A DNA stretch of 45,893 bases from an uncultured Bifidobacteriaceae bacterium. GTDB lineage: Bacteria; Verrucomicrobiota; Verrucomicrobiia; Limisphaerales; JADLHS01. Under the pieces are notes generated by a model. The model searched no databases and was not told the origin of the DNA. It worked only from the letters and a program-made list of their open reading frames with translations. Shown here one piece after another: positions 20,815 through 35,672 of the stretch. Where the stretch lies: contig CAZNOE010000003.1 in the NCBI GenBank assembly GCA_964574525.1, positions 1-45,893 of the forward strand, in the 5' to 3' direction. Position 1 is the stretch's first letter. Every line of letters begins with the position of its first letter. Made by a program: the position numbers and the translations under genes.

Positions 20815-23800
20815 TCAGGGTGAACTTTTTTGGGGATTATCCGGCACCGCTTGCAGGTAGTGCCAGATCGCATCGAATTGTTTGCGCGCGTCGCCGTCGA
20901 GCACGGTCGCGATGGGCGTGGTGGTTTGGTCGGCGGAGAACTGCGGCATCTTCGAACCAGGCTCGACGCGAAGGGGATTCAGTACCCAGCGCTGATAATA
21001 CTCGTAGCGCAACCGGTCTTTCACCATGGCGAAGTTGACGCCCTGATTGTCGAACGCGGCGACCGGTGCTTGCGTGCCAACGCCGTGACACTGGATGCAG
21101 TTGAAGCCGTTCTCAGCGAGCGTGAGACGGTGACCGATCTCGGTCAGTGGCGAATCCGGCGGCGGCTCGACGGCAGTGTTCCAAACGACGCCGTGTTCGG
21201 CGGCCAAGCCTCTGGCCAACGGCGCGGCCCGGGAAGCAAATACCGGCATGCGTTGCTTCATCCAAGGACGCGAGCGCGCCGGCAGTTCGCCGGCGAAAAG
21301 TTTCTGCAGCCATTGGCCCTTGAGCTTTTCCCCGGCCCAGGTAAGCGAAGGGACGGGGGCAGGGACGGACTTGCCAGGCTCATCCTCCTGGTTCGCGGCT
21401 TGCAGACGCTCATCGGATTGCCACCGGCTGTTTTGTCCGTCGCGGCTGTGGCAGACGGTGCAATTCAAGGTTGCGATTGTTCGTTGCGCAAATTCCGTCC
21501 GCGCGTCCTGCTTCAGGGAATCTCCACCTGTGCCGAGAAACGCAAGCAACGCCTGCTGCTCGGCTGGCGAAAACCTGAAATCCGGGGCGGCACTCTTGTC
21601 ATGTTCACCAAGACACCCCGCGCTTCGAGGATTCTTGAAAATGTTCACCGCGATTTTCTGATCGCTGGCGGGTTGGTCGGCGCCCGAGTGACAGTTCGCG
21701 CAACGCAACTCGCCGAACAATGCCGCACCGCGCCGGGCATCCGCATGACTGAGTTCCGTCGCCTGCGCGAGGCGGCCGGCGGCGTTTGCGCCCAGATACG
21801 ACGCGAGCGCGGCAGCTTCGTCGTCCGTCAGCCGGAAATCCGGCATGCGAGTCCATGCGTAGTGCTGCGCCGGCGCGCGAAGAAATTCCTTCAGCGCGCC
21901 CGGCTGAAACTTTGCGTTCACGAAATGCAGCGAGGTCCGGCCTTCGGCATCCTTGCCCGCCGGTGTGTCGAGGGTGTGGCAACCGACGCAGCCCAGGCTC
22001 GAAAACAGCGCTTGTCCTTCCGTCACGTTGTTTTCGAGCTTAGGCTGCGTCGCATCGCCGCCCGTCAAAGTTCCGAGATACGCCGCGAGGTCCGCCGCGG
22101 CCTGGCGGTTGGTCGCTCCACCGCTTTCATGCAGCAGGCGTGGCATGGTCACCTGGCTGCGCACACGCGCTGGCTCCAGCAACCAGTGGAAAATCCACTC
22201 GCGCGTCAACCGACTTCCCACGCCCGTCAACAACGGCACGTCGCGCTGAAGTTCCGGCATGACATCGTGTTCACCCTTCTTGATCGGAACCTGGTGACAT
22301 TTGGCGCAGTTGCGCTCGGAAAAAAGCTCGCGTCCGAGCCGCAGCGATTCCCGCGCGCGAACCAAACCATCGGGGTTGCAGAAGAGATTCGCTGGCGGAA
22401 CGGGTTCGGCCGTGAAGTCGTTGCCCTCCCAGTAGAGGCGGACGGCAGCGTCGCCGTTTGTCGGTGAATCGTATTGCAGGTCAATCCGGTTGTAACCTTG
22501 TCGCAGTGAGGCAGGCGTGGGCGAAATCTGTGAAAGCTCGCCTTCGCCGGCCAGCACGAGCTCGCCGTTGATGGTCAACTTCACGCGCCCGTTTCCGCGG
22601 ACACTGAACTTGAATTCGGAACTCAACGGCGTGCGCAACAACCCGTCGAACGCGGCGCTGAACGGCCCTCGCTTCAGAAACGCGGTGGCCGGTTCGCCGG
22701 ACTGGACTTGCAGGGCGACCATGCGGTCGCGACGCGCATCGAGAAATTCTGGCTGGCCGGTGGACGTGAAGCGGACATTGACGCCCGGCAGGAAGCGGCT
22801 CTCCGCAGTTTTGTTCACGCGGCCAATGCCGGCCCCCTTGGGCAGATTCTTCGGCACCAAACGATCCGGCCCAATCGCGTTGATGGTGTTGAAAATGGTT
22901 GATTGAATCAGTTTGCCGTCCGCAGCTTTGAGCGAAATCTGGATCTGCATTTGCATGACGGGCTTGAGGTCCTTGATGGCGAGAAAAACGGTGCGGCCAT
23001 CATCGAGCAACATGGCGGATTCGACCAGCAGGGCATCGTGGCCGATCTGCCCGGGTTGCGAGGGCTTGTAATCCTTGGAGCCATAGGGCTCGTGATAATC
23101 ATAGTTCCACTGCTCGATGGCATAGTTGCCGAAGTCCTCGGCGGAGGCTTTGTCCAGGGGTTCGGCAAACGTGACGGCGATACCTTGTTTTTCGATGTGG
23201 AAATCGCGCGGCAGATAAATTTTCTGGCCCGTGTAGCGCACGCGGTAAAACGCGCCCGGCAGCGATTTGTTGGAACTCCAGCCAAACAAACCGCACACGT
23301 ATAACTGGCCGTCGCGAGGATGAAAGCGTGACCGCATGATGCCCGTTGGAAAGTCCAACGGAAATTTCACCACGCCGCCCTGCGGGACGCCGTTGATCAT
23401 TTCGTACGGCACGAGGTACAAGGCGCCCATGCCATACGACGAGGAGATCATCTGATCCTTGAACGGTCCCCACTTGTCGCTCGTCACCCACAATTGCTCG
23501 GCGGGTGAACGATCGGTCTTCGGCCAGATCCAACAGAGCGGCGGATCGTACGTCGTGGGCTGCGGGCCGCGGTGGTAAGACCACATGTAACCGTAAAAGC
23601 CGCCCGGCTGCACGAGGTTGATGCGATTGGCCGGTGTCCAATGTCCTTCCTGGTCGCTGACGGCGATCTCACCCTTCGGACTCAAGCCCACTCCGTTCGG
23701 CGCGCGAAATCCGTTGCAGACAAACTCGGTGGTTTTGCCGTCCGGCGAGACTTTCAACAGCGTTCCGTGCTGGGGGACCACCGAGTCCAGCGCATGACGG

Positions 23801-25266
23801 CCGCCTTTGGCGTAGTAGAAATTCCCGGCCGGGTCGGTCTGGAGGTCCATGGCGAACTCATGGAAATGTTCCGTGACTTGATGGTCGTTGTTGAAGTTTT
23901 CGTAAAAGTCGGTTTCACCGTCACCGTTCAAATCGTGCAGACGCGTGATCTGGTCGCGGCCGCAGACATAAATCTCGCCGCGAACAATTTTCAATCCCAA
24001 CGGCTGGAACAAGCCTGTGGCGATGCGTTGCCAGGAGAGTTGTCCCAGCGAATCGTCGAGGCCATCAACCACCCACACATCGCCGTCCCACGTGCAAATC
24101 GCCGCCCGCCGCCCGCCCTCGAAGAAATCAAAGCCGCCGAAGCGCATCCGTGCTTTCCACGGGTTATCGGTTGGGGCCGTGATCTGATCAATCACATAGG
24201 CGGCGGTATTTTTGCCGGCTTCGCCCTTGGTCACGAGTTTCTCCGGCCAGCGCCCCGGGCCGCCACGAGTCAACGGCTGAAGGTTTGTCGGCGCGGCGCT
24301 ACGTGCTGCCATCGCGGCGAATTTGGGCAGGTCTGCTTTAGTTCCACGCCAGAGCAGCAGCTTGCGGCGGGTGGTTTTAGAAGCGGGGGCCAGCTTGAGA
24401 CGGATATTTCCGGCGCCATCGAGCGCGAATTGATCGCCCGCCAATGCGCCCGCGCAAGCCACGACGGTGATTTCGGGCGAGGCATCCGAACTCAGCAGCG
24501 CGATGTTGCCCGACGCGGCGGGCCCCCCGGCCACTGCGCGCAGCGACTTGGCGTTAAGCAGTGTACTGGAGGATCCCTCCTGCGCGCAGACTTGGAGAAG
24601 GAGCGGGCTTGCCGAAGGATCAATTTCCAAAGTTCGGGTGAAGGCCCACAAGTCCTGGCCCGTTTCCCCGCCCGGTAATTCCAACACGCCCGTGTCCCCG
24701 ACTTTGTAGGAAAGGACCACCTGATGGCCGTGAAGATAGAGGCCACGATAACGAGCGTTGTCGTGCGCGAGCGGTCCGTACGGAAGTGCTCGTGGGTCGT
24801 CGAAGTTGCCGCTCTTGGCCCAGCCCGGTTTGGGAGGGTTGGCCAACAGTTGCGTGCCGACAATGGAGGAATGTTTGCCGTGCTTGCCGTCGAAGAGAAT
24901 GTTGTTCCAATTAATTGCCCCTCCAGTCCATACCGCAGAAAAACGCAACAGGTCCGTGTCGAAGAGCGCGTAGGTCTGGGAATTGGTATCCAGACAAATC
25001 ATCAGGCCCTTCATGGTCAGGTTGGCCTTGGGCTGTGGCGCTTCAATCGTGGCGGTGAGAAACGGGCCGTAATTCATTTCGCGCCACGGCTCGGCGGGTG
25101 GAATCTTGGTTTCAGCGAGCTTCCGCCCCGCGTCACTCGGCTGCGGGGCGGCGGGATTCGCCGGCGCCGCCCGGCTCGGGGCTGGCAGCGCTGCGAGCAA
25201 GAGTATCAAGGTCAGCCCGCGGACGAAGGGTTGCATAGCAGGCTGAGTTAAGTTCGGAGTCGCCAT
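20815..25266 (-). CDS. Giant secreted penta-haem c-type cytochrome fused to a beta-propeller (PVC membrane-bound-dehydrogenase type) and a PA14-like beta-sandwich
   Basis: The ORF's first codon at 25323 is TTG. The first ATGs are at 25266 (MATPNL) and 25236 (MQPFVRGLTLILLLAALPAPSRA, a signal peptide). Five CxxCH motifs are present: CAKCH, CVGCH, CANCH, CTVCH, CIQCH. The propeller segment is DVWVVDGL...HDLNGDGETDFYENF. Confidence 0.8.
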   Translation of the reverse strand: MATPNLTQPAMQPFVRGLTLILLLAALPAPSRAAPANPAAPQPSDAGRKLAETKIPPAEPWREMNYGPFLTATIEAPQPKANLTMKGLMICLDTNSQTYALFDTDLLRFSAVWTGGAINWNNILFDGKHGKHSSIVGTQLLANPPKPGWAKSGNFDDPRALPYGPLAHDNARYRGLYLHGHQVVLSYKVGDTGVLELPGGETGQDLWAFTRTLEIDPSASPLLLQVCAQEGSSSTLLNAKSLRAVAGGPAASGNIALLSSDASPEITVVACAGALAGDQFALDGAGNIRLKLAPASKTTRRKLLLWRGTKADLPKFAAMAARSAAPTNLQPLTRGGPGRWPEKLVTKGEAGKNTAAYVIDQITAPTDNPWKARMRFGGFDFFEGGRRAAICTWDGDVWVVDGLDDSLGQLSWQRIATGLFQPLGLKIVRGEIYVCGRDQITRLHDLNGDGETDFYENFNNDHQVTEHFHEFAMDLQTDPAGNFYYAKGGRHALDSVVPQHGTLLKVSPDGKTTEFVCNGFRAPNGVGLSPKGEIAVSDQEGHWTPANRINLVQPGGFYGYMWSYHRGPQPTTYDPPLCWIWPKTDRSPAEQLWVTSDKWGPFKDQMISSSYGMGALYLVPYEMINGVPQGGVVKFPLDFPTGIMRSRFHPRDGQLYVCGLFGWSSNKSLPGAFYRVRYTGQKIYLPRDFHIEKQGIAVTFAEPLDKASAEDFGNYAIEQWNYDYHEPYGSKDYKPSQPGQIGHDALLVESAMLLDDGRTVFLAIKDLKPVMQMQIQISLKAADGKLIQSTIFNTINAIGPDRLVPKNLPKGAGIGRVNKTAESRFLPGVNVRFTSTGQPEFLDARRDRMVALQVQSGEPATAFLKRGPFSAAFDGLLRTPLSSEFKFSVRGNGRVKLTINGELVLAGEGELSQISPTPASLRQGYNRIDLQYDSPTNGDAAVRLYWEGNDFTAEPVPPANLFCNPDGLVRARESLRLGRELFSERNCAKCHQVPIKKGEHDVMPELQRDVPLLTGVGSRLTREWIFHWLLEPARVRSQVTMPRLLHESGGATNRQAAADLAAYLGTLTGGDATQPKLENNVTEGQALFSSLGCVGCHTLDTPAGKDAEGRTSLHFVNAKFQPGALKEFLRAPAQHYAWTRMPDFRLTDDEAAALASYLGANAAGRLAQATELSHADARRGAALFGELRCANCHSGADQPASDQKIAVNIFKNPRSAGCLGEHDKSAAPDFRFSPAEQQALLAFLGTGGDSLKQDARTEFAQRTIATLNCTVCHSRDGQNSRWQSDERLQAANQEDEPGKSVPAPVPSLTWAGEKLKGQWLQKLFAGELPARSRPWMKQRMPVFASRAAPLARGLAAEHGVVWNTAVEPPPDSPLTEIGHRLTLAENGFNCIQCHGVGTQAPVAAFDNQGVNFAMVKDRLRYEYYQRWVLNPLRVEPGSKMPQFSADQTTTPIATVLDGDARKQFDAIWHYLQAVPDNPQKSSP

Positions 25267-25457
25267 GTTATTCAGGTAATTAAACCGGTTTGCAGTCCAG
25301 CAGTTCTCCCGTTCACTTGTCAAGAACCCGCAGGCTTCTAATCACTTTCCGCAAAGGATTTGCCGCTTTTCCCATGTTGCCCGGGGACTGATGGGATTAG
25401 TTTCTTCGCCATGCAAGCAGCCATTGGCTGGTTAAAGCCAGGTGGGTGCATGAATTT

Positions 25458-26576
25458 ATGTCAGCCAATAAACAGTTACTTAGCTACATCGCGCACGCCG
25501 CGCCGGCCACGCGGCGGCCCGCCACGGGCAACGAGCCGTTTCTCCGTCCGGAGATCGGCTTCACGCCACGATGGTATAACGACGCGGTGGGAGTCACGTT
25601 TGGAGACCAATGGCACACCGATCCGGCTCACCGCCGCGACACCATCGTCGCCATGGACAAGGAAACCAAACGGCGGTTCGGCAATCGCGCGGACATGGGA
25701 ATCCTTCAGGACTCCGATCAACCGCTCGATCTCCTGACCGGAACCTACGGCGCGCTGCTCATTCCCGGCGTTTACGGCGTGCCGATCAAATTTCAAGAGA
25801 TTGATTGGCCGTGGAGCCAGCACGGTCAGTTTCTCAGCGACGATATGGCTGGCAAACTTCAGCCGCCGGATCTGGACAAGAATCCATACTGGGATCAGTT
25901 CATGAATCAGGTCGAATGGATCGCGAAAGAGAATGGGAAGATCGTTGGCTTTATGAACTGGCAGGGCGTGGTCAACAACTCCTATCGCTTGCGCGGAGAA
26001 GAATTGTTCCCCGACATGATCAGCGAACCCGACCGCGTTAAACACATCTTCGAATGCGTGACGCAGACGATGATTGACGGCATTCACCGGCTCTATGAGC
26101 GGCAAAAGGCGTCAGGAGTGGAATTGACCCATGTGACGATCAGCAACTGCCTGGTCAACCTCCTTTCGCCCGGCCAGTACGAGGAATTCGTGCTGCCTTA
26201 TGACAGCCGCCTCGCCGAAGCCTTCAGCATGATCGGCGTCCACAACTGCGCGTGGAACGCGGATCCCTACGTCGAGCATTACGCCAAACTGCGCGATGTG
26301 GCCTATGTTGACATGGGGTTGGAATCGGATCTCGTCCAGGCGCGGGCGGCGTTCCCCAACGCGCGCCGTGCGTTGATGTACACGCCGATGGAGGTGAAGG
26401 AGAAAACCCTCGAACAGCTCACCAACGATCTTGATCGCGTCGCCCGTGAATACGGCCCTTGCGATATGGTGTTCGCCGACATTGACCGGGGCGTGCCGGA
26501 TCAACGCATCCACGAGTTGATTGATCTGTGCGAAAAGATCTCCGACAAGTACGCAGCCAATCCAGTACAGCCATGA
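25458..26576 (+). CDS. Uroporphyrinogen-decarboxylase-fold (URO-D-like, MtaA/MT-I-type) methyltransferase
   Basis: The ORF opens at GTG 25446 and the first ATG is at 25458. Length is about 372 aa. The pattern TYGALLIPGVYGVPIKFQE, NLLSPGQYEEFVLPYD and IGVHNCAWN matches the URO-D/methylcobamide methyltransferase layout. H266-x-C268 plus C339 resemble the MtaA zinc triad. Confidence 0.7.
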   Translation: MSANKQLLSYIAHAAPATRRPATGNEPFLRPEIGFTPRWYNDAVGVTFGDQWHTDPAHRRDTIVAMDKETKRRFGNRADMGILQDSDQPLDLLTGTYGALLIPGVYGVPIKFQEIDWPWSQHGQFLSDDMAGKLQPPDLDKNPYWDQFMNQVEWIAKENGKIVGFMNWQGVVNNSYRLRGEELFPDMISEPDRVKHIFECVTQTMIDGIHRLYERQKASGVELTHVTISNCLVNLLSPGQYEEFVLPYDSRLAEAFSMIGVHNCAWNADPYVEHYAKLRDVAYVDMGLESDLVQARAAFPNARRALMYTPMEVKEKTLEQLTNDLDRVAREYGPCDMVFADIDRGVPDQRIHELIDLCEKISDKYAANPVQP

Positions 26577-26606
26577 ATTCGCGTCACCCTATGAAAGGAC
26601 TAAATC

Positions 26607-27275
26607 ATGCCTGATTACGCTTTGATGAACCAGTTGCTCTACGAGGGCAAGGCCAAGGAGATTCTGGAAATGACCGAGAAGGCAATCGCGGACGGTTTCC
26701 CCGTGGAGGAAGTGCTGAACGAAGGTTTGATCGCCGGCATGAGTGTCGTGGGCGAGGACTTCAAACGCATGGTGCTCTACGTGCCCGAGGTGCTGATTGC
26801 CGCGCGGGCAATGAAAGCGGGCCTCGCGGTATTGAAGCCGCTGTTGACGGCCGGCGGCAACACCTCTTCCGCCGGCGTGCTGGTCATGGGCACCGTGAAG
26901 GGTGATTTGCACGACATTGGCAAGAACCTCGTGTGCATGATGTCGGAAGGCGCGGGCTTCAAAGTCGTTGATCTGGGAGTGGATCAACCGGTGGAAAACT
27001 TTCTCGCCGCCGCGAAGGAACACAATGCGGACATCGTCGGCATGAGCGCGCTGCTGACCACCACGATGGGCTATATGAAAAATGTGATTGATGGTTTCAA
27101 AGCAGCCCAGTTGGATCACGTGGCGATGGCGGTCGGCGGCGCCCCTGTGAGCCAGATGTTCGCCGATGAAATTGGTGCGGATGCGTACGGTTCAGACGCG
27201 TCATCAGCAGTTGGTAAATTCAAGGAACTCGTCGAGCAGAAAAAGACGCCACCAGCCCAGATTGCGGCTGCTTAA
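26607..27275 (+). CDS. Corrinoid (cobalamin-binding) protein: B12-binding cap helix bundle plus Rossmann B12-binding domain
   Basis: ATG at 26607 is preceded by AAGGA with an 8-nt spacer. The DxHxxG motif appears as GDLHDIGKNLV, followed by GMSALLTTT and AVGGAP. Length is 222 aa, typical of MtaC/MtbC/MetH-Cob modules. Confidence 0.9.
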   Translation: MPDYALMNQLLYEGKAKEILEMTEKAIADGFPVEEVLNEGLIAGMSVVGEDFKRMVLYVPEVLIAARAMKAGLAVLKPLLTAGGNTSSAGVLVMGTVKGDLHDIGKNLVCMMSEGAGFKVVDLGVDQPVENFLAAAKEHNADIVGMSALLTTTMGYMKNVIDGFKAAQLDHVAMAVGGAPVSQMFADEIGADAYGSDASSAVGKFKELVEQKKTPPAQIAAA

Positions 27276-27282
27276 ACCAGCC

Positions 27283-27543
27283 ATGGCCACTTATCAAATC
27301 CTGTCATGGAAGTCGTTGCCGGCCCAGGTGCGCGTCGAACACGGGGGAGATGAGGTCAGCCTGGAGTTGGATCGGCGCGCGCAGGAACTCATTGACGCTG
27401 CGGCCGTGAAAGACGGCCTGACGGATCCCGATGCCTACCTGCAACAGTGGCATTGGAGCGAACCGCAGGAACGCGCGGGTTCGGCCCAGGAAGTGGCCGC
27501 CGCACTAAAGCGGGAATTGGAAGCCCAACTCGGTTTGTGCTGA
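27283..27543 (+). CDS. Small conserved-looking protein (86 aa), possibly of the 'virulence factor' PF13769-type family that accompanies MTHFR_C genes
   Basis: ATG at 27283 lies 7 nt after the upstream stop and ends 6 nt before the next start. MATYQILSWKSLPAQVRVEHGG...DPDAYLQQW resembles, from memory, the ...YWRDIPAQV...DAYL..W pattern. The family assignment is recall only. Confidence 0.5.
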   Translation: MATYQILSWKSLPAQVRVEHGGDEVSLELDRRAQELIDAAAVKDGLTDPDAYLQQWHWSEPQERAGSAQEVAAALKRELEAQLGLC

Positions 27544-27549
27544 AGCAAT

Positions 27550-29238
27550 ATGCAATCGCTAGCGGAAAAAATGCTCCGCGACGGGCAGTTCCTCTACGGG
27601 GTTGAACTGGTTTCGACGCGCGGCACGATGGCCGAGGAGTCGGCGCTGCGAGTCCGCCGATTTGCGCAAGACCTCGTGGACTGCCCGTGGGTGGACTGGG
27701 TTTCCATCACCGACAATGCCGGCGGCAATCCAATGATGGGCCCAATGGCGCTGGGCAAGCCGAGCATCTACGCGGGAAAAGAGGTGGTCATTCATCTTTC
27801 TTGCAAGGATTTCAACCGCAACGGTCTTGAGCGCGAAGCCTGGCAGCTCGCCAGTGAGGGCTTTCACAACATTCTGGCGCTGACCGGCGATTATCCCGTT
27901 GCCGGTCACGAAGGCCAGGCCAAGCCGGTGTTCGACATTGATTCGGTGGCGTTGCTCTCGATGCTCCGCGAGATGAACAACGGACTGGGCGTGCGGAAAA
28001 ACTGCGGCGAAAACCCGTCGCGCCAGCTCGGCAAGACCCAGTTCTTCCTCGGTGCGGTCGTCACCAATTTCAAGCTCCACGAAAACGAGGTCGTCCCCCA
28101 ATATCTGAAGCTGGAGAAAAAGATCGCGAACGGCGCCCGCTTCATCATCAATCAGATCGGCTTTGATTCGCGCAAAATCCACGAGTTGCTGCTTTACCTG
28201 CGGCGACGCGAACTGGCCCACGTGCCCCTGATCGGCAACGTCTATCTGCTCAACCATCGCGTGGTGGAATTTTTTCACCAACAGAAAATTCCCGGCGTTG
28301 TCATTTCGGCGGAACTCGCCGCGCTTTGCCGGCGACGGGCGCAGTCGCCCGACCGGGGCCGGGCCTTCTTCCTCGAACTGGCGGCCAAGCAGAGTGCCGT
28401 TTATCGGGGGTTGGGTTATCGGGGAGTCTATTTTGGCGGCGTTCATTGTTTGGGTGATTTGGAATTGATTTCTGAAATCGAGAAAACATTTGCGATGGAT
28501 GATTGGAAACAGTTCGCCAAAGAAATCCGCTTTTCGCGGCCTGGCGAGTTTTTCCTTCTGGCCGAAGACCCGGCGACCGGCCTGGCGGACCCGCTCCGTT
28601 TGAATCCGGAGTACGAGCAATCGCTGCGCGACCGTCGCCCTTCCCGGCATGTGACAGTCAACTATCGCCTTTCCAAGTGGATGCACGATCGGCTGTTCAC
28701 GCCGGGCCGGGGTTTGCACAACGTCGGAGTGAAGATTTTTCAGAACGCTTCGGACACCACCCAAGGACCGAAACTCCTGCGCATGATCGAGCACGCGAGC
28801 AAAGCCGCGATGTTCGGTTGCAAGGACTGCGGGGATTGCTCCCTGCCCGAAATCGGCTATTTGTGTCCGGAGTCCGCCTGCGCGAAAAATCAACGCAACG
28901 GTCCGTGCGGTGGCACGCGCGACGGCAAATGCGAGGTGGATGACTTTGATTGCATCTGGAGTCGCGCCTACGACCGGAGCAAATACGAAGGCACCGAGCA
29001 GGAGTTGCTCGCCCACGCCCCCGTCATTCAGGATCAAGGACTGCGCGGAACGTCGAGTTGGGCCAACACCTACCTGCAAAGAGATCACCTTGCCCGGCCA
29101 CGCGCGAATGGGGGCAACCCACCCGAACCAAAACAACCATCGCCGAACCAGCCGGAGAATCCTCGACTGCGGAAGGAAGCTGCTCAACGTCAGAAAGCAA
29201 AGCTCGATGAGGAAGCCCAAGTCTGTTTGAAAGATTAG
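27550..29238 (+). CDS. Methylenetetrahydrofolate reductase (MetF-like) fused to an MTHFR C-terminal Cys-rich (MetV-like) domain
   Basis: ATG at 27550. N-terminal TIM-barrel pattern YGVELVSTRG...HLSCKD...LALTGDY. The C-terminal Cys cluster is GCKDCGDCSLPEIGYLCPESACAKNQRNGPCGG...CEVDDFDCIW. Confidence 0.8.
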   Translation: MQSLAEKMLRDGQFLYGVELVSTRGTMAEESALRVRRFAQDLVDCPWVDWVSITDNAGGNPMMGPMALGKPSIYAGKEVVIHLSCKDFNRNGLEREAWQLASEGFHNILALTGDYPVAGHEGQAKPVFDIDSVALLSMLREMNNGLGVRKNCGENPSRQLGKTQFFLGAVVTNFKLHENEVVPQYLKLEKKIANGARFIINQIGFDSRKIHELLLYLRRRELAHVPLIGNVYLLNHRVVEFFHQQKIPGVVISAELAALCRRRAQSPDRGRAFFLELAAKQSAVYRGLGYRGVYFGGVHCLGDLELISEIEKTFAMDDWKQFAKEIRFSRPGEFFLLAEDPATGLADPLRLNPEYEQSLRDRRPSRHVTVNYRLSKWMHDRLFTPGRGLHNVGVKIFQNASDTTQGPKLLRMIEHASKAAMFGCKDCGDCSLPEIGYLCPESACAKNQRNGPCGGTRDGKCEVDDFDCIWSRAYDRSKYEGTEQELLAHAPVIQDQGLRGTSSWANTYLQRDHLARPRANGGNPPEPKQPSPNQPENPRLRKEAAQRQKAKLDEEAQVCLKD

Positions 29239-29242
29239 AACC

Positions 29243-30163
29243 ATGCCGGCACCCCGAATACAAATCATCGGCGAATTGATGAACCACTCCTTTGCCCGCG
29301 CCCGGCGCGCGTGGCTCGATCGCGACATCAAGGGCTACCAGAAGCTGGCCCGGGTGCAGGTTGATCTGGGCGCGAGCTTTCTGACGCTGAATCTGGACGG
29401 CACCCAAAATCTTCAGGTTCGACCGGAGGAGATGCTGGCCTTCCTGCCCGAATTGATCCCTGGAATTCAGGCGGAAGTTTCCGTGCCGCTCTCGTTTGAC
29501 AATCCGTGGGTCGGCTACCACAAAGTCGCCTTGCAGCATTATGATCGTTCGATTGGCGGTCCGCCGATCATCAACTCGCTGGCCGCCTCGCGCAAGGAAC
29601 TCAACGAGATGATTGAGCTGGTTGGCGAATTCGACACGTGGGTGATCGTGATGGCGTCGGAGCGGTTCACTCCCACCGGCACGGCGCAATGCCTCAGCGC
29701 ACCGCACGCCTATGAAGCCACGCGCCAGATGGTGGAACTCTTGCGAAAACAAACCGGTCGTCGCAATGACCAGATCATCGTTGACCCCGGACTCGCGCCT
29801 GTCGGCGCGGACACTTACGGCTTGGTGAACATCGGGCTGGATACGATCCGCCTGATCCGGAAGGACCCGGACCTTGCCGGAATCCACATTTCCGTCGGGC
29901 TGACCAATTTCTCCTGGGGCACGCCGATGGAACTGCGGGTGCGGCTGGAGCGCGCCTACCTGACGCTCGCCGCGGAGGCGGGACTCGACATGGCGCTCGC
30001 AAATCCGGAAAAAAATCCCCAACCGCTGGAACCGGAGGATCCTCTCGTCGCGCAATTGCGTCGCGCCTTGGAAACCGGCCGGCCGCAGGACGGCGAGACG
30101 CAGGAACATGCGGGCTATCGGCAGGCCGAAGGCATCATGGAGATCTGTAACGATGCTCTCTGA
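29243..30163 (+). CDS. Pterin-binding (dihydropteroate-synthase-like) methyltetrahydrofolate:corrinoid methyltransferase
   Basis: ATG at 29243 lies 4 nt after the upstream stop. IIGELMN, FLTLNLDG, LSFDNP, IINSL, IVDPGL and SVGLTNFSWG match the MeTr/AcsE/MetH-folate-module barrel pattern. Confidence 0.8.
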   Translation: MPAPRIQIIGELMNHSFARARRAWLDRDIKGYQKLARVQVDLGASFLTLNLDGTQNLQVRPEEMLAFLPELIPGIQAEVSVPLSFDNPWVGYHKVALQHYDRSIGGPPIINSLAASRKELNEMIELVGEFDTWVIVMASERFTPTGTAQCLSAPHAYEATRQMVELLRKQTGRRNDQIIVDPGLAPVGADTYGLVNIGLDTIRLIRKDPDLAGIHISVGLTNFSWGTPMELRVRLERAYLTLAAEAGLDMALANPEKNPQPLEPEDPLVAQLRRALETGRPQDGETQEHAGYRQAEGIMEICNDAL

Positions 30164-31481
30164 AGCAGCCACTCAAATCTCCGAGCACGAACTTTCCCGC
30201 AAGCTGTCTTCCGCGCGCGGGCCGGTGTGGCTTCGCGTGGGCACGCTCCTAGACGGCGTCAGTTCAACACCAATGCGCAGCGCGCATCTCGTTTACGATG
30301 ACAATGGGATCCTTCATGTCGGCGATGAAGCAACGCCTCCACCGACGGATTTCTTGAAGCCCGGCCAGCTTGCGCCGGACCACGATCTGCCGGAGTTCAC
30401 GGTGTTGCCCGGCTTGGTTGAAGCTCACGCTCATCTGTTTCTGGAGGGCGGCGAACTTGATTTTGTGAAGCGGAAACTTTACCTGGCCAAATCTGCCGAC
30501 GACCTGCTGGCGCTCGCTCAGCCGCGTCTTGCAACACTTGTTCGCTTGGGAGTCATGGCGGTACGAGACGCCGGCGACCGCCACGGCGTTGGCCTACGGC
30601 TCACTGAACTTTTTCGTGACTCAGCGCAAGCAACCCGCGCAGAGGCGTCCGCCTACATTGACAGCCCCGGGGCCGCGATTCATCACCGGGGCCGCTACGG
30701 TGGCTTCATGTCGCGCGCGATCGAGGACTACGCTTCCGCCGAAGCCTGCGTGGAGGAACGCATCGCGGCCGGCGCCCACCGCATCAAACTTATTGTCTCC
30801 GGCATCATCAATTTCAAACTGGGCTGCGTGACCGATCCGCCGCAGATGCCGCTCGCCGAAGTCGCTGCCCTCGTAAAAGCGTCCCGCAGCCGCGGCCGGC
30901 AGACCTTCGCTCATGCCTCGGGAACGGAGGGGATTGAAAATGCGCTGAACGGCGGGGTGGATTCTGTGGAGCACGGATTCTTCATCACCCGCGATCAACT
31001 TGCGCGGATGCGCGACCAAGGTATCGCGTGGGTGCCGACCTTCGCGCCGGTGCACGCACAAGTGGATCACGCGCAGCGAATGGGCTGGGATGAAGTGGTC
31101 GTGGGCCATCTGCGGCGCATTCTGGACGAGCACGCGCGCAGTCTTTCGCTCGCTGCGGCGATGGGTGTGCAAGTCATCGCTGGCAGCGATGCCGGCTCGT
31201 GCGGTGTGCCGCACGGCCTGGGATTACTTTACGAATTGGAATTGATGGAACGCGCAGGTATGTCGAGCCTGGCCGTCCTCAACGCGGCCACCGGCGTCAG
31301 CGCGCAGCGTCTGGGGTTCGACGAGCCGTTCGGCATCCTGGAGCCGGGCCGCAAGCTGCGCCTGATCCTGACGCGACACGATCCTCGGGAAACCGTGACC
31401 AATCTCCGGCGCGAAAAGATTTGCGTGTTCGATGGCCAGGTGTTCGCCGCGCCGGCGGCGGCGCCCATCGCGGGGCTTTGA
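30153..31481 (+). CDS. Amidohydrolase-superfamily metallohydrolase, substrate unknown
   Basis: ATG at 30153 gives an 11-nt overlap with the upstream gene. An alternative ATG is at 30108. LPGLVEAHAHLF (HxH), FAHASG, SVEHG and AGSDAG are the canonical metal and catalytic strand motifs. Confidence 0.75.
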   Translation: MLSEAATQISEHELSRKLSSARGPVWLRVGTLLDGVSSTPMRSAHLVYDDNGILHVGDEATPPPTDFLKPGQLAPDHDLPEFTVLPGLVEAHAHLFLEGGELDFVKRKLYLAKSADDLLALAQPRLATLVRLGVMAVRDAGDRHGVGLRLTELFRDSAQATRAEASAYIDSPGAAIHHRGRYGGFMSRAIEDYASAEACVEERIAAGAHRIKLIVSGIINFKLGCVTDPPQMPLAEVAALVKASRSRGRQTFAHASGTEGIENALNGGVDSVEHGFFITRDQLARMRDQGIAWVPTFAPVHAQVDHAQRMGWDEVVVGHLRRILDEHARSLSLAAAMGVQVIAGSDAGSCGVPHGLGLLYELELMERAGMSSLAVLNAATGVSAQRLGFDEPFGILEPGRKLRLILTRHDPRETVTNLRREKICVFDGQVFAAPAAAPIAGL

Positions 31482-31529
31482 GAATGATGATGCATCTCCG
31501 CACGGTTCGGCCATATACTTGAGTCAAGC

Positions 31530-33179
31530 ATGCCTGTCCAACTCACCATCAACTCACAGACTCTCGAGGTTGCTGCCGGGCCATCGCTCTTCGACTGCGC
31601 CGAGCAGTTGGGCGTTCATGTGCCAACTTCCTGCCACAAACAGGGCAAGTGTCGTGAATGTCTGGTGGAAGTGGTCGAGGGGATGAATTTGCTCTCGCCA
31701 CTTTCTCCGGAGGAAAAATATCTCAAGGAAAATTTCCGGCTCTCGTGTCGCTGTCACATCAAAGCCGATGCCGGGGCGGTGCACTGTCACACGATGCGGC
31801 GCGGTCGGATGCAGATCGAGGAACATGCCAGCGGCCTGCGGGACACGACTGCCATCGCACCCGATCCCTCGGTGACGCGCGACGGCGAATGGATTCTGCT
31901 CGACGGCGAGCCGCTCACGCGCGCCACTGGGCCAATCCACGGCCTGGCGATGGATCTGGGCACGACGACGGTGGCGTTGCGGCTCATGAATCTGGAGTCG
32001 GGTGAACTGGTGGCGCGGAGCGCGTTTGAAAACCCGCAGCGCTTTGGCGGCTCGGACATCATGGCGCGGATTCATTTCGATACGCACAACCCGGGCCGGC
32101 TGCTGCAACGCACGCTGCTCGGCTACCTTCAGCACGCCATCGAGGAATTTCCGGTTGATCCGCAAACGATTTACGAACTGGTTGTGTCGGGCAATTCCAC
32201 AATGCGTGATCTGTTCTTCGGACTGAATGTTCACAGCATCGGCCAGAAGCCTTACCATTCGTTGACTCAAGTGGAGTTGCTCGCGGGCCAACGAACCTCC
32301 ACCAGCCTGTCAACCAAAGCGCGCCAGTTGCGTCTGCCGATCCATCCCGACGCGCGCGTCTATGGCCTGCCGCTCATCAGCGGTCACGTGGGTGCGGACG
32401 CCGCCGCCTGCCTGTTGGCGATGGACCTGGCGAACGAAGAACGGCTCGTGGCGCTGATGGACATCGGCACAAACACCGAACTCATTCTCGGCAACAAGCA
32501 CAAGATCATGGTGGCCTCCTGTCCCGCCGGACCCGCGTTCGAGGGCGGCGGAGTGGCGTGCGGGATGCCGGCCTTGCCGGGCGCCATCGAGCGGATCACC
32601 CTCCTCGACGATGGCCGGATTGAAACCCGCGTCATCGGGGACGCGCCACCCGAAGGCATCTGCGGCTCCGGTCTGGTGGATCTGTTGAGCGAACTGCTGC
32701 GCACCGATCGGATGAATGCGCTCGGCCGTTTCGAGCACGGTGAGGACGGCTTCGTCGTGGATGCGAAACATCAAATCATCTTCCGCGAGCGGGACGTGAG
32801 CGAGCTGGCGCAGGCGAAAGGCGCAAACGTGGCGGGCTTGCACATCCTGTTCAAGAACTACGGCGTGCGGTTTGAGGATGTGGAAGTGTTTTATCTTGCG
32901 GGCGGCTTTGCGCGGCATCTGGATATTGAGGCGACGCGGCGAATCGGTTTGGTGCCGGCCATCGAACCGTCACGCATCGTGCAGGCGGGCAACATGTCGG
33001 CGCAAGGCGCGATGCTGGCGCTGCTTTCGCAAACCCGCCGCGAGCAACTGGAACGCTTGGTCCGGGCCGCAGTTCATGTGGAACTGGAAACGGACCTGGC
33101 TTTCTTTGATTACTTTGTCGCCGGCTGTCAGTTCCAGCCGGTGGAGTCGCTCGGTCAATTCAGTTCCGCCATTTCTTAG
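31530..33179 (+). CDS. RACo-like corrinoid reductive activase: N-terminal plant-type [2Fe-2S] ferredoxin plus an ASKHA ATPase domain
   Basis: ATG at 31530. SCHKQGKCRECLV...LSCRC gives the Cys4 ferredoxin pattern. GLAMDLGTTTVALRL and LMDIGTNTELILG are ASKHA phosphate-1/2 motifs. ICGSGLVDLL is typical of RACo/DUF4445 proteins. Confidence 0.85.
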   Translation: MPVQLTINSQTLEVAAGPSLFDCAEQLGVHVPTSCHKQGKCRECLVEVVEGMNLLSPLSPEEKYLKENFRLSCRCHIKADAGAVHCHTMRRGRMQIEEHASGLRDTTAIAPDPSVTRDGEWILLDGEPLTRATGPIHGLAMDLGTTTVALRLMNLESGELVARSAFENPQRFGGSDIMARIHFDTHNPGRLLQRTLLGYLQHAIEEFPVDPQTIYELVVSGNSTMRDLFFGLNVHSIGQKPYHSLTQVELLAGQRTSTSLSTKARQLRLPIHPDARVYGLPLISGHVGADAAACLLAMDLANEERLVALMDIGTNTELILGNKHKIMVASCPAGPAFEGGGVACGMPALPGAIERITLLDDGRIETRVIGDAPPEGICGSGLVDLLSELLRTDRMNALGRFEHGEDGFVVDAKHQIIFRERDVSELAQAKGANVAGLHILFKNYGVRFEDVEVFYLAGGFARHLDIEATRRIGLVPAIEPSRIVQAGNMSAQGAMLALLSQTRREQLERLVRAAVHVELETDLAFFDYFVAGCQFQPVESLGQFSSAIS

Positions 33180-33180
33180 C

Positions 33181-34437
33181 GTGAAAATTTTCGACCCCAA
33201 TCCAAAAGTCACCGTGACCGATAGTGAGTTTGGCCGGCTCCTGGGTTTTCCTCCCGGTCAGGAATGGGGAGAACGGGTGATCGAACTCGCCGCCTGGGCG
33301 CGTGAGTGGTACGCCGCGCACGGAAAACCCTGGGTCCATACGCACGAGGCGGAAGCCATTGAGGTCGGCGAAAATTCTGTGCGGGTGGAGAATATTGAAT
33401 TCAAGAGCCGGGAACTGCGCGACCGCTTGACGAAGGCCAAGGCCGCGGGCGCGGTGCTGGTCGCAGCGGGTGCCGGCGTCGAGGCTGAGGAAGAGGCGCA
33501 GCAACGATGGAAGACAGACCGTCCGGATGAATATTTTTTTCTGGAGGTCTATGCTTCCGCCGTCGTGGAGCATTTGATCACCACGACCGGCGCGCGTTTG
33601 TGTGACTGGGCCGATCATCAGAAAATGGTCGTGCTCCCGCACTACAGTCCGGGTTATCCGGGGTGGGAATTGGAGGATCAACACGCGTTGTTGACGCTGC
33701 TCCGCCGCAGCCGCGAGCCGTTTCCGTTGCATCTCGAAGTGCTGGCTTCGGGCCAGTTGCGACCCAAGAAATCGCAGTTGGCGTTGTTCGGCCTGGCGGC
33801 GAAAAATTCAGCGACGCCGCAACCGGCGGAATTGATTCCGTGTCACCATTGCAGCTACACGCCCTGCGCTTATCGCCGCGCTTCGTATCGGGAAACGGCT
33901 TATTGCGTTGATGGTTCACCGGTGCCAGACGGCGCCCCGCTCAGGCGCAATGGCATCCCCAAACCCGTCGTGCCTTTGAAACGGGGCTTTCGGTATTCGA
34001 TCGGCGAAAAGGCTCTCCGCCGGTGGGCCGAGGAATATTTGCAAATCGAACCGGCTGCGAATGGCGACCTTCGCGCGCGGTTTCGTTATCACGGCAGCAC
34101 TTGCAGCAACATGGGCACGCCATTGGCGTACGATTTCTCGGTTTGGTTGGGTTGCGCCGCGGGCGGGTATCGCATCACAAAAACCGCTTGCGCGCCTGCG
34201 GTGGAAGATAGTGGCGTTGAAGCCACCTGCAGCTCTATTGAAAGTCCGGAGCGGCATCTCGCGGAGGTCGCGAACCAACCGCCAATCATCGGCCGCCATC
34301 TGGACGATGCGGTGCAATGGTCGCCGGACATTCTTCCCTCCGGTTGCCTGTGCAAGGAAACGGATCGTAATCACAAATGGAAACTCGTTCTCCAAACCCT
34401 CCATTACCGGCTGGCTCACCATGAAGAAAACGCTTAA
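33181..34437 (+). CDS. MetH-type activation (AdoMet-binding reactivation) domain fused to an unknown Cys-rich C-terminal domain
   Basis: There is no in-frame ATG until about aa 130. GTG at 33181 lies 1 nt after the RACo stop. The N-terminal ~200 aa (DSEFGRLLGFP...EYFFLEVYASAVVEHL...LPHYSPGYPGWELEDQ..L) match the Met_synt_B12 pattern. After that come CHHCSYTPC and about 190 aa with several conserved-looking Cys (HGSTCSNMG, SGCLCKE) that I cannot place. Confidence 0.65.
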   Translation: MKIFDPNPKVTVTDSEFGRLLGFPPGQEWGERVIELAAWAREWYAAHGKPWVHTHEAEAIEVGENSVRVENIEFKSRELRDRLTKAKAAGAVLVAAGAGVEAEEEAQQRWKTDRPDEYFFLEVYASAVVEHLITTTGARLCDWADHQKMVVLPHYSPGYPGWELEDQHALLTLLRRSREPFPLHLEVLASGQLRPKKSQLALFGLAAKNSATPQPAELIPCHHCSYTPCAYRRASYRETAYCVDGSPVPDGAPLRRNGIPKPVVPLKRGFRYSIGEKALRRWAEEYLQIEPAANGDLRARFRYHGSTCSNMGTPLAYDFSVWLGCAAGGYRITKTACAPAVEDSGVEATCSSIESPERHLAEVANQPPIIGRHLDDAVQWSPDILPSGCLCKETDRNHKWKLVLQTLHYRLAHHEENA

Positions 34438-35326
34438 GGAAGCGCTCAAAGAACGACGCCTCGTGTGCGATGGCGCGATGGGCACGCAGTTGATGCTCGC
34501 CGGCCTGGAGCAGGGCGCGTGCGGCGAGATGTGGAATCTCACGCACCCCGAACGCGTGCTGGCAATCCAACGCAACTACGTGGGAGCCGGTGCGGATTGT
34601 CTCATCACAAACACTTTCGGCGGAAACCGGCTCATGCTGACGCGCCATCGTCATGCACAAGACCTGGCCGAACTCAACCGCGCCAGTGCAAGGATCGCGC
34701 GCGCCGCTTTTGGCGACAAAGAGGGCTTCGTCCTCGGAGACATCGGGCCGGCGGGCGGGGTTTTGGAACCCTACGGTGATTTGAAGGCGGAAGATGTGGG
34801 CGCCGCATTCCTGGAACAGGCGAAAGCGCTCGTCGAAGGCGGAGTGGACGCGATCATCATTGAAACGCAGACCGCGCTGGAAGAATTGGGACTGGCCATT
34901 GATGCGGCCAAGGCGGCGGGCGCACCGTGCATTATCGGCTCCCTCGCTTACGACCGTTCGCCCGACGGAACTTTTTTTCGGACGATGATGGGTGTTTCAC
35001 CGGAGCAAGCGGCGGAATACGTCCAGGAAAAAGGCGTGGCCGTTGTGGCGCTGAACTGCGGCACCGGCATGGACATGGATGGGGCCGAACAGGTCATCCG
35101 CCATTACCGGGCGAATTCCAGTTTGTTCACGATGGCCCAGCCCAACGCCGGACTCCCTGTTTTGGAAAATCTCAAGGCGGTTTACAAGCAGACGCCGGAC
35201 GAGATGGTGGAACGCCTCCCGGACGTTTTGACCGCCGGCGCCAACATCGTCGGCTCCTGCTGCGGCAGTACGCCCGACCACACGCGAGCCATCCGTCGCA
35301 TCGTCAATCAATACAACCACCGTTAA
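34421..35326 (+). CDS. Homocysteine-binding S-methyltransferase domain protein (MetH Hcy-module / BHMT-like, zinc-dependent)
   Basis: ATG at 34421 gives a 17-nt overlap with the upstream gene. CDGAMGTQL, ITNTFGGN, IIETQ, ALNCG and GSCCGSTPDH include the three Zn-ligand cysteines of Pfam S-methyl_trans. Confidence 0.85.
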   Translation: MKKTLKEALKERRLVCDGAMGTQLMLAGLEQGACGEMWNLTHPERVLAIQRNYVGAGADCLITNTFGGNRLMLTRHRHAQDLAELNRASARIARAAFGDKEGFVLGDIGPAGGVLEPYGDLKAEDVGAAFLEQAKALVEGGVDAIIIETQTALEELGLAIDAAKAAGAPCIIGSLAYDRSPDGTFFRTMMGVSPEQAAEYVQEKGVAVVALNCGTGMDMDGAEQVIRHYRANSSLFTMAQPNAGLPVLENLKAVYKQTPDEMVERLPDVLTAGANIVGSCCGSTPDHTRAIRRIVNQYNHR

Positions 35327-35342
35327 TCACAAACCCAGGAAT

Positions 35343-35672
35343 ATGAAATTGAAAATCTGCCAGGAAAGCGTTGCCGCCGAAGAAAAACTGCCGCCAAAAT
35401 TCGCCGACCGGTCCCGCATCGGCGTTCATTACGTTGATGCCTACATCAAGCCGATGAACGTGACGCTCGCGGATGGCACCAAAGTCAGTTGCAAGCGCCG
35501 CGGGCTGAAGCTGACGCTGACCGTCGGCGACAAAAAGGGCGAAGGCCTGATGCGCCGGCTCGAGGTCAGTCCCGATCCGAAAGTGATGCTGCGCGCCGCG
35601 CTCCATGAAGCCGCCAAAGGAGCCGGGCTTAAATTCGAGGTCGAGGACGGGGATGTCTATCTGGAGGCGTGA
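35343..35672 (+). CDS. Hypothetical 109-aa protein, last gene of the corrinoid operon
   Basis: ATG at 35343 lies 16 nt after the upstream stop. The sequence is Lys/Glu-rich and soluble-looking with no recognisable motif. It is called coding mainly from operon position and an unbroken frame. Confidence 0.45.
   Translation: MKLKICQESVAAEEKLPPKFADRSRIGVHYVDAYIKPMNVTLADGTKVSCKRRGLKLTLTVGDKKGEGLMRRLEVSPDPKVMLRAALHEAAKGAGLKFEVEDGDVYLEA

Follow-up and report, generated by a model that had tools for sequence, protein, structure and literature searches.

A ten-gene operon of a verrucomicrobial contig as a probable split B12-dependent methionine synthase with an exchangeable methyl-donor enzyme

The operon and its genes

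The window analysed here is the whole stretch of 45,893 nucleotides of the contig CAZNOE010000003.1 (assembly GCA_964574525.1, positions 1 to 45,893), deposited under the name of an uncultured Bifidobacteriaceae bacterium and assigned by GTDB to the Verrucomicrobiota. On its forward strand it carries ten genes, g1 to g10, which probably encode a B12-dependent methionine synthase in pieces, equipped with its own methylenetetrahydrofolate reductase (MTHFR) and with a pluggable methyl-donor enzyme, g1, of the uroporphyrinogen decarboxylase (URO-D) fold. The genes are as follows (THF, tetrahydrofolate; AdoMet, S-adenosylmethionine; Hcy, homocysteine; MT-I and MT-II, the donor-side and acceptor-side methyltransferases of corrinoid systems).

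g1, 25446-26576, + strand: remote URO-D/MtaA-fold, probably Zn-dependent methyltransferase; proposed donor-side (MT-I) enzyme
g2, 26607-27275, + strand: corrinoid (B12) carrier protein, PF02607 and PF02310
g3, 27283-27543, + strand: small PF13769 protein, member of the cassette
g4, 27550-29238, + strand: MTHFR (MetF-like) fused to a Cys-rich MetV-like PF12225 domain
g5, 29243-30163, + strand: pterin-binding methyltransferase, predicted to link methyl-THF and the corrinoid protein; alternative start at 29279
g6, 30153-31481, + strand: amidohydrolase of the prolidase/carboxypeptidase type, PF01979
g7, 31530-33179, + strand: RACo/RamA-type ATP-dependent reductive activase with an N-terminal [2Fe-2S] ferredoxin domain
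g8, 33181-34437, + strand: TM0269/MetH-type (AdoMet-binding) activation domain, Cys-rich linker and Cys-bearing alpha+beta tail
g9, 34421-35326, + strand: homocysteine S-methyltransferase (MetH Hcy module/MtgE-like), PF02574
g10, 35343-35672, + strand: conserved protein of approximately 110 aa, always after the homocysteine methyltransferase

The intergenic gaps from g1 to g10 measure +30, +7, +6, +4, -11, +48, +1, -17 and +16 nt, in agreement with the first-pass annotation of this DNA, which had described ten co-directional reading frames separated by -17 to +48 nt. Since the gene 5' of the operon is divergent and the gene 3' of it convergent, the ten genes are one transcription-unit-like block. 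Its G+C content (0.58-0.62) is the same as that of the flanks, and a promoter and terminator scan gave matches no more numerous than in shuffled sequence. The arrangement is not a product of chance, because the full set of ten genes is also present in a metagenome-assembled genome (MAG) of the Acidobacteriota (L010) and on the contig of a close relative.

All ten proteins were scanned with the Pfam and NCBIfam hidden Markov models (HMMs). The Pfam scan backed eight of the ten domain assignments proposed earlier, all but those of g8 and g10. The NCBIfam matches stay below the curated cut-offs in every case, and by these scores the proteins appear to be family-level relatives, not equivalogs, of the modelled enzymes.

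Protein assignments and the proposed reaction cycle

The carrier protein g2 combines PF02607 (B12-binding_2, 62 bits) with PF02310 (B12-binding, 95 bits); its DxHxxG motif reads GDLHDIG in the translation, and by NCBIfam it is MtgC/MtbC-like (190-200 bits, below the curated cut-offs). On the homocysteine side, g9 contains PF02574 (S-methyl_trans, 198 bits) with the Cys3 motif NCG...SCCG and matches the N-terminal half of PRK08645 at 237 bits and residues 2-316 of MetH at 154 bits. On the folate side, g5 contains PF00809 (Pterin_bind) and matches PRK07535 at 91 bits and the folate module of MetH at 54 bits; in the close relative it is called as a protein of 294 aa. The fusion protein g4 (PF02219, the MTHFR domain, and PF12225) matches the C-terminal half of PRK08645 at 106 bits, and g6 (PF01979, Amidohydro_1) has as its PDB sequence matches Xaa-Pro dipeptidase, Arg carboxypeptidase and ochratoxinase. 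The C-terminus of g4 (residues ~500-562) is a low-complexity tail rich in Pro, Gln and Lys; the homologue of the close relative counts 555 aa against 562. The predicted ATP-dependent activase g7 is composed of Fer2, Raco_middle (121 bits) and RACo_C_ter (225 bits) and is AcsV-like by NCBIfam (300 bits). The small protein g3 matches PF13769 at 54 bits, and no papers on this family were found in the literature; g10 has no match in Pfam, NCBIfam or the PDB, and the family profiles of g10 and g3 revealed no detectable relative of known function in the PDB.

As to g8, taken alone it has no match in Pfam (even at E<=0.1), in NCBIfam or among PDB sequences, although it has more than 2,600 homologous protein clusters, of which the named ones are all 'hypothetical'. 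An AlphaFold2 (AF2) model built from 53 homologues (pLDDT 79) divides the protein into a folded N-terminal domain (~1-210), a disordered linker (215-263) bearing the invariant motif PCxxCSxxPCxYRR, and a C-terminal alpha+beta domain (~270-418). With Foldseek the N-terminal domain retrieves TM0269 of Thermotoga maritima (1j6r, E 7.7e-10, TM 0.83), followed by the MetH reactivation domains of T. thermophilus, E. coli and human; a sequence search with the g8 family profile likewise leads to 1j6r (E 0.004), the motifs SPGY and (R/V)P(K/R)K(S/T) (RPKKS) being aligned. Thus the earlier description of g8 as a MetH-type activation domain with an unknown tail is upheld by the structure model, though not by HMMs. 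The tail, for which Foldseek found no significant structural relative, has five invariant cysteines (C308, C337, C350, C389 and C391), and a metal or iron-sulfur site in it is plausible.

Aligned to MetH, g9 corresponds to residues 2-316, g5 to 345-588 and g2 to 651-862, and the N-terminal domain of g8 is the counterpart of the activation domain by structure. All four MetH modules (Hcy, Fol, Cob, Act) are therewith present, on g9, g5, g2 and g8. The operon would work like MetH and yet is not a member of the MetH family, since the parts reach only 54-154 bits on four separate proteins, as against the 1010-bit cut-off of the equivalog TIGR02082. Nine of the ten genes (all but g1) are largely a methionine synthase in pieces, together with a supply of methyl-THF and two repair devices.

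The cycle that we propose runs as follows. The donor enzyme g1 would transfer a methyl group from a compound X-CH3 to the Co(I) form of the g2 carrier, giving CH3-Co(III), from which g9 would methylate homocysteine to methionine. Methyl groups would be exchanged by g5 between CH3-Co(III)/THF and methyl-THF, probably in both directions, and g4 would interconvert methyl-THF and methylene-THF. Carrier oxidised to Co(II) would be rescued by g7, at the expense of ATP and a reductant, and/or by g8 with AdoMet. In such a scheme g1 would play the part that MtgB has in the MtgBCDE system and charge this carrier with methyl groups from a second source. At the level of domains, the first-pass annotation was right to recognise here the four-component architecture of corrinoid methyltransferases (corrinoid protein, RACo-type activase, the acceptor modules PF00809 and PF02574, and g1 with its URO-D fold) and right to name two methyl sinks, THF via g5/g4 and homocysteine via g9.

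Comparison of loci

Approximately 165 loci were compared, L001-L082 fetched via g1 (in two groups) and L083-L166 via g8. They reveal a constant cassette: corrinoid protein, in most cases the PF13769 gene, RACo, g8, homocysteine methyltransferase and g10. The PF13769 gene usually stands between the corrinoid protein and RACo or MTHFR, so that g3, noted at first as merely a small reading frame, is small and a conserved member of the cassette as well. A homologue of g10 (~110 aa, 50-67% identical) follows the homocysteine methyltransferase in cassettes of several phyla, dozens of them in total, and the earlier view of g10 as an orphan has to be abandoned. Both g3 and g10 are conserved accessories.

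The genes g4, g5 and g6 behave as a separable folate module, being present or absent independently of the cassette: some cassettes have the triad (53-67% identical to that of the window where it is kept), while it is missing from most. The MTHFR fusion g4 is 57-67% identical in L010, L093, L110, L116, L143 and L166, and the amidohydrolase g6 accompanies the MTHFR and the pterin methyltransferase in L010, L093, L110, L116 and L143 and partly in L125 and L160. L166 lacks g6 and has, beside its folate genes, formate-THF ligase and a formate-dehydrogenase-like gene.

The first position of the cassette is occupied by different enzymes. The combination with g1 occurs in the window, on a Planctomycetota chromosome (L001/L018), in Acidobacteriota (L002/L014, L015, L022) and in L010. 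A second donor family, u2, opens the same cassette in ~35 contigs from soil and peat; it is 22% identical to g1, belongs to the MtaA/CmuA family (104 bits) and has the motif H-N-D, with Gly in the place of the third ligand. A third family, u3, found in L166, scores 140 bits to MtaA (4ay7) and has a clean His-Cys-Cys site. In L073, from the Hydrogenedentota, five URO-D genes, one of them of the g1 type, cluster around one corrinoid protein, one RACo and one homocysteine methyltransferase. Outside the cassette, no neighbour was conserved among 37 long g8 loci. The system is thus built of three modules, namely a constant carrier/acceptor/repair unit, an optional folate unit, and exchangeable donor-specific methyltransferases; this follows from the constancy of the cassette, from the donor slot being filled by at least three unrelated URO-D/MtaA-fold families and from the optional triad.

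Some of these loci have features of their own. In L166 (3033-21281) the formate-THF ligase lies directly upstream of the cassette, and downstream are an unannotated membrane protein of 480 aa, an MtaA-like URO-D gene and the formate-dehydrogenase-like gene, which is of the molybdopterin type. In L073 (6568-17973) RACo is long (703 aa, with the linker domain), a GxGYxYP putative glycoside hydrolase adjoins, and both g8 and g10 are missing. On the long-read Acidobacteriota chromosome L002 (7367-9467) RACo and the homocysteine methyltransferase are called as fragments (186 and 106 aa), which could reflect frameshifts from sequencing errors or decay of the cassette. Cassettes of the u2 type adjoin GH115 (L084:3111-6068) or pectinesterase and arabinofuranosidase (L085:13748-19300); these cases are anecdotal and not conserved between loci. 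GH115 is a family of alpha-glucuronidases acting on 4-O-methylglucuronoxylan.

The first-pass annotation had named a mere split methionine synthase as the outcome that would speak against its own proposal. For nine of the genes this description is largely right, and the cassette is indeed independent of its context; it probably does not cover g1 and a donor slot that is filled by several URO-D families. In its full form, the operon would be nothing more than a housekeeping split methionine synthase (MetH pieces plus MetF), with g1 a structural or regulatory accessory or an unrelated neighbour. The presence of all four MetH modules and MTHFR, the wide and context-independent occurrence of the cassette and the experimental precedent for split MetH argue for this explanation, which we nevertheless regard as improbable. 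Nearly every cassette has a URO-D-fold gene in the same slot, drawn from three families, the usual picture for MT-I enzymes that differ in substrate; in most Acidobacteriota cassettes the pterin module is missing, which would leave the URO-D enzyme as the sole input encoded at the locus; and five URO-D genes surround one carrier in L073. Nor is there a SAM or B12 riboswitch upstream of the operon. At the gathering threshold no riboswitches were found in the window or in five cassette loci, and a permissive search upstream of g1 and of the L083 cassette gave nothing relevant; one sub-threshold small-RNA match lies within coding sequence and was taken as chance. There is accordingly no sign of purely methionine- or B12-dependent control, although this is weak negative evidence.

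The same comparison bears on the direction of the methyl flow. Most cassettes are without the pterin module and yet have a URO-D enzyme and the homocysteine module, which makes it more likely that the URO-D enzyme stands on the donor rather than on the acceptor side. The opposite would be that g1, as an MT-II, passes methyl groups coming from methyl-THF through g5 to a thiol or to some other acceptor. MtaA and MtbA are themselves acceptor-side enzymes, and g5 with g4 could supply methyl-THF. Against such a reversal, g4 and g5 are dropped by most cassettes, which keep the URO-D enzyme and the homocysteine methyltransferase; without folate input the methyl groups must come in through one of these two, and methionine donates them poorly. 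Besides, no acceptor-biosynthesis genes are conserved nearby in the 37 long g8 loci, and we consider reverse flow very improbable. A role of the URO-D enzyme as MT-II on the folate side was rejected as well, the folate methyltransferases of the MtoA/MtvA type having been described as MtrH/pterin-type proteins.

The proposed donor enzyme g1

By Pfam g1 is a URO-D protein (31.2 bits, cut-off 23.9), its matches to the MtbA, MtaA and CmuA models of NCBIfam are weak (15-18 bits), and the hemE equivalog TIGR01464 does not match it at E<=0.01. Neither g1 alone nor its family profile gave anything useful against PDB sequences. The AF2 model is a URO-D-type barrel (pLDDT 87, pTM 0.87), whose top match among PDB structures is the methylcobalamin:CoM (coenzyme M) methyltransferase MtaA (4ay7, E 3.6e-11); HemE decarboxylases and MetE come close behind, and the modelled fold alone does not discriminate between HemE and MtaA. 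An RQAGR-type motif, characteristic of HemE, was not seen by eye in the N-terminal region of g1. That g1 is not a HemE follows from the lack of a match to the hemE model, from MtaA being the best fold match and from the physical linkage of the gene to those of corrinoid proteins in four phyla; the earlier separation of this reading frame from true HemE holds.

The g1 family is large (more than 1,369 protein clusters) and well conserved (55-68% identical between phyla). A genome scan found it in 217 GTDB species, of which 80 loci, all from MAGs, were retained; the neighbour counts below refer to these. The hosts belong to the Verrucomicrobiota, Planctomycetota, Acidobacteriota, Chloroflexota, Armatimonadota, Bipolaricaulia and Spirochaetia and further to the Poribacteria, Latescibacterota, Hydrogenedentota, Calditrichota, KSB1 and even the Hadarchaeota. 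Two g1 contigs, L005 (82% identical) and L045 (54%), are also labelled 'uncultured Bifidobacteriaceae', which looks like a binning or labelling error, given their gene content resembling that of the Planctomycetota-Verrucomicrobiota-Chlamydiota (PVC) group.

The alignment of g1 with the MtaA/u2/u3 profile by hhalign has an overall probability of 97.6% and is locally weak at the position of the distal Cys. In it the invariant H266 and C268 of g1 align with the His and Cys zinc ligands of MtaA, and D345, likewise invariant, takes the position of the third MtaA ligand, a Cys that belongs to the P-G-C-G motif following the last strand. Further invariant cysteines are C204, C235, C339 and C362. Of these, C339 was considered as a third zinc ligand, giving a His-Cys-Cys site and sulfur chemistry, and was dropped: in the AF2 model it stands at the N-terminal start of the last strand, the wrong end, and in the profile alignment D345 occupies the ligand position. 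In the URO-D superfamily, His-Cys-Cys sites go with S- or Se-methyl chemistry and a carboxylate in place of the Cys goes with O-methyl chemistry (Kountz and Balskus, PMC10418091). By this published rule of thumb, with D345 replacing the Cys, the predicted His-Cys-Asp site makes g1 look like an O-type enzyme.

Still, one may suppose that g1 acts, like MtsA, MtpA and Mlp, on a methylated sulfur or selenium compound (methanethiol, dimethyl sulfide, methylmercaptopropionate, dimethylselenide) and passes the methyl group to homocysteine. The best fold match with MtaA, the invariant H-x-C together with the four invariant cysteines, the existence of S/Se-active URO-D relatives and the clean His-Cys-Cys site of u3 in L166 all speak for such a substrate. 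We find it unlikely, because in the alignment g1 has an Asp in place of the canonical third Cys, C339 being at the wrong end of the strand, and because the conserved neighbours of g1 (DHDPS-type lyase, SSF symporter, sialidase-like proteins and sulfatases, see below) are not genes of sulfur volatiles.

One more property of g1 is the peptide SYIAHAAPATRRPATGxEPFLRPE at its N-terminus (25446-25540, residues 1-30), which is almost invariant between phyla and at the same time is modelled at very low confidence (pLDDT 34-62). Possibly g1 uses this conserved and flexible stretch for docking on a partner.

Neighbours of g1 and the nature of the methyl donor

The first-pass annotation had suggested that the operon harvests methyl groups from methylated glycan components. 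For the constant cassette this is not borne out, as it occurs regardless of the context of carbohydrate-active enzyme genes; for g1 alone, the neighbours described here and the predicted His-Cys-Asp site speak in favour. Two genes of the window, both outside the operon, enter into this question.

BNR_2, 19690-20751, - strand: secreted sialidase-like protein (320 bits, signal peptide visible), possible partner of g1
SSF sodium:solute symporter, 2243-3874, - strand: PF00474, homologous to g1-adjacent symporters elsewhere; its tie to g1 is tentative

In 26 loci a lyase of the DHDPS (dihydrodipicolinate synthase) family is encoded no more than 7 kb from g1, and in 19 loci it follows g1 directly in the same orientation; it is not DapA (169 bits, below the cut-off of 206). 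SSF symporters are near g1 in 21-25 loci and FGE-sulfatase (formylglycine-generating enzyme type)/BNR_2 proteins in 19, and sulfatases and Gfo/Idh/MocA oxidoreductases (GFO) also occur; at least one of the lyase, SSF, FGE-sulfatase/BNR_2, sulfatase and GFO genes is present in 44 of the 80 loci. A lyase, an SSF transporter and a sialidase-like protein together form the layout of sialic-acid-type utilisation clusters. In the Acidobacteriota loci L010, L014 and L022 the cassette and g1 stand together with SSF and/or the lyase.

The window shares this context in part. Its BNR_2 protein is 59% identical to the BNR_2 inside g1-DHDPS-SSF-KdsB-...-BNR_2 operons (L034, L049, L050 and L069, Planctomycetota/Aegiribacteria), its SSF symporter shows 31-36% identity to those encoded a few kb or less from g1 in 25 loci, and its GH172 genes have 42% identical homologues near g1 in Armatimonadota. 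On the contig of the close relative, GFO, SSF and FGE-sulfatase genes follow the operon, in place of GH172, GH127 and GH29.

On the basis of these recurrent neighbours, of the context shared by the window and of the His-Cys-Asp site, an O-methylated sugar or sugar acid, which would be imported by the SSF symporter and then cleaved by the DHDPS-type lyase, is the single most likely donor, tentative as this assignment is and somewhat short of an even chance. A still bolder reading is that g1 would be the first corrinoid-dependent, oxygen-independent O-demethylase of a methylated carbohydrate, in the likeliest case of an O-methylated ulosonic or sialic-type sugar acid, otherwise of another methylated sugar released by the glycosidases nearby, with import by SSF before the demethylation on the B12 carrier and cleavage by the lyase after it, the methyl group going to methionine and the folate pool; we put it forward as rather unlikely. 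The only route of carbohydrate demethylation that our literature searches and the first-pass annotation brought up is that of a P450 monooxygenase, for 6-O-methyl-galactose (PMC6292453).

A number of points weigh against the interpretation of g1 and of the operon given here. No DHDPS-type lyase is present in the window, nor are KdsB or a sulfatase, and the SSF gene is 21 kb away from the operon. A single phylum, the Planctomycetota, supplies the majority of the tight g1-DHDPS-SSF operons, and the neighbour associations could partly be background, PVC bacteria and Acidobacteriota being rich in glycan genes. Approximately 70 of the 80 g1 loci, the closest relatives (82-85% identity) included, have no corrinoid gene within 7-10 kb, and in those the coupling of g1 to a corrinoid protein is assumed. 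It is the missing lyase, the single phylum, the glycan-rich genomes and these ~70 loci that keep our estimate for the sugar donor low. The score of g1 against the curated MtaA, MtbA and CmuA models is low, its third zinc ligand is predicted from a low-confidence stretch of the alignment plus secondary-structure logic, and the joint presence of RACo and an AdoMet-type activation domain is unusual and unexplained.

Several further observations concern the surroundings of g1 elsewhere. Its closest relatives, L003-L005, have no corrinoid genes nearby and have as neighbours a PhyH dioxygenase, a LacI regulator and an amidohydrolase. The PhyH-family Fe(II)/2-oxoglutarate dioxygenase lies directly 5' of g1 in the closest relative, an Opitutaceae MAG (L003:8975-9913), and a PhyH-family gene is also found upstream of the Acidobacteriota cassette (L002:5550-6482); this dioxygenase could be an oxygen-dependent alternative to g1 or its partner. 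In 12 loci, mostly from Planctomycetota (L034, L044, L048-L052, L057, L058, L062, L063 and L069), a QueG-like gene of the epoxyqueuosine reductase family (DUF1730 and 4Fe-4S) is located ~94-218 nt from g1 on the opposite strand, divergently upstream of the g1-DHDPS-SSF operon. QueG itself is a B12 enzyme, and the adjacency could be lineage synteny or a functional link.

As for the flanks of the operon in the window, Pfam finds GH29, GH127, two DUF2961/GH172 genes, BNR_2, giant cytochrome c proteins and DUF1559 proteins, the last two kinds being typical of PVC bacteria. The glycan genes named earlier are thus there, with the exception of GH43, whose match is weak (25 bits, cut-off 32). In two giant secreted proteins (20815-25323 and 6423-10493, both on the - strand, 1,502 and 1,356 aa), HEAT repeats, cytochrome c domains and DUF6807 are joined to DUF6797 or DUF7133, and a DUF6797 gene also lies upstream of the operon on the contig of the close relative.

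Implications

The concept of modular B12-dependent methyl transfer that feeds methionine synthesis is known. What is new is the donor family g1, the architecture of g8, the accessories g3, g6 and g10 and the link to sugar-acid genes. Uncultured bacteria of soil, peat, sediment and the sea carry the cassette in abundance, and the named copies of g1 and g8 are all annotated as 'hypothetical' or 'uroporphyrinogen decarboxylase family'. If the proposed function is true, many bacteria of the Acidobacteriota, the PVC group and candidate phyla make methionine by a modular B12 system that uses environmental methyl compounds, and the genome-based inference of methionine auxotrophy and of B12 demand would change. 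Next to RACo, g8 with its MetH activation domain and new Cys-rich domain makes an undescribed combination of B12 repair devices. Should the donor of g1 prove to be a methylated sugar, this would show an oxygen-free demethylation of methylated glycans, an anaerobic counterpart to the P450 route.

Comparison with known systems

In our incomplete search of the literature no paper was found on a URO-D-based cassette, on g8, on PF13769 in this context or on corrinoid-dependent demethylation of sugars. The closest characterised system is MtgBCDE/RamA/MetF2 of Ruegeria pomeroyi and Phaeobacter inhibens. In Ruegeria, MtgC and MtgD serve methionine synthesis and betaine demethylation alike, and a second MTHFR, MetF2, is encoded 3' of mtgD (PMC12478193); a split MetH with a RamA-like reactivase was established genetically in Phaeobacter and Desulfovibrio (PMC5764234). 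Common to this system and the operon of the window are a stand-alone corrinoid protein shared by a PF02574 module, a bidirectional PF00809 module and a substrate-specific methyltransferase, as well as a reactivase of the RamA/RACo type and a dedicated MTHFR paralogue. The donor enzymes differ, however: that of the window has the URO-D/MtaA fold, while MtgB belongs to the MttB superfamily (PF06253), of which Pfam finds no protein in the operon. In addition, the DUF1638 protein of the Mtg system is replaced by g8, the window adds g3, g6 and g10 and has all its genes in one operon, and the hosts are PVC bacteria, Acidobacteriota and other phyla instead of Alphaproteobacteria.

The closest cluster that is described and uncharacterised is that of Williams et al. 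2022, composed of an MttB homologue, a homocysteine methyltransferase, a corrinoid protein and an activation protein, for which methionine synthesis from an unknown methyl donor was proposed as a hypothesis only. It resembles the window in having three MetH modules as separate genes beside a non-folate methyltransferase; it differs in its donor (MttB versus URO-D), and its description does not mention RACo, PF13769, g10 or the folate triad.

The O-demethylase systems OdmABCD and MtvABC of acetogens and Desulfitobacterium and the archaeal MtoABCD (PMC8630106) likewise consist of an MT-I of the URO-D superfamily, a corrinoid protein, a pterin-type MT-II and an ATP-dependent activase, and their genomes bear multiple alternative MT-I genes. 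Unlike the operon of the window, they transfer the methyl group only to THF or tetrahydromethanopterin and have neither a homocysteine module nor a MetH activation domain; their substrates are phenyl methyl ethers, and g1 is only remotely related to them in sequence. With MtaA, MtbA, MtsA and the type 1 mlp clusters (PMC10418091) the window shares the best structure match of g1 (MtaA 4ay7), the kept H-x-C and the partnership with a corrinoid protein and a RACE/RACo protein. Here the differences are that the third Cys ligand is apparently Asp in g1 and that the window has no CoM context; the type 1 mlp clusters, moreover, need at least Mlp2 and Mlp3 (two or more SCMT-like URO-D genes) and have no folate or Hcy modules, whereas the window has a single, very divergent URO-D gene with both modules.

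Finally, the Hcy, Fol, Cob and Act modules of MetH, as known from E. coli and T. thermophilus and from the MetH/TM0269 pair of T. maritima, are all recognisable in the window, the N-terminal domain of g8 being nearest to the stand-alone TM0269. In contrast to MetH, these modules are distributed over four polypeptides, each far below the MetH equivalog cut-off, and the window has in addition a fifth methyltransferase and a RACo activase, while its activation protein is extended by a Cys-rich tail.

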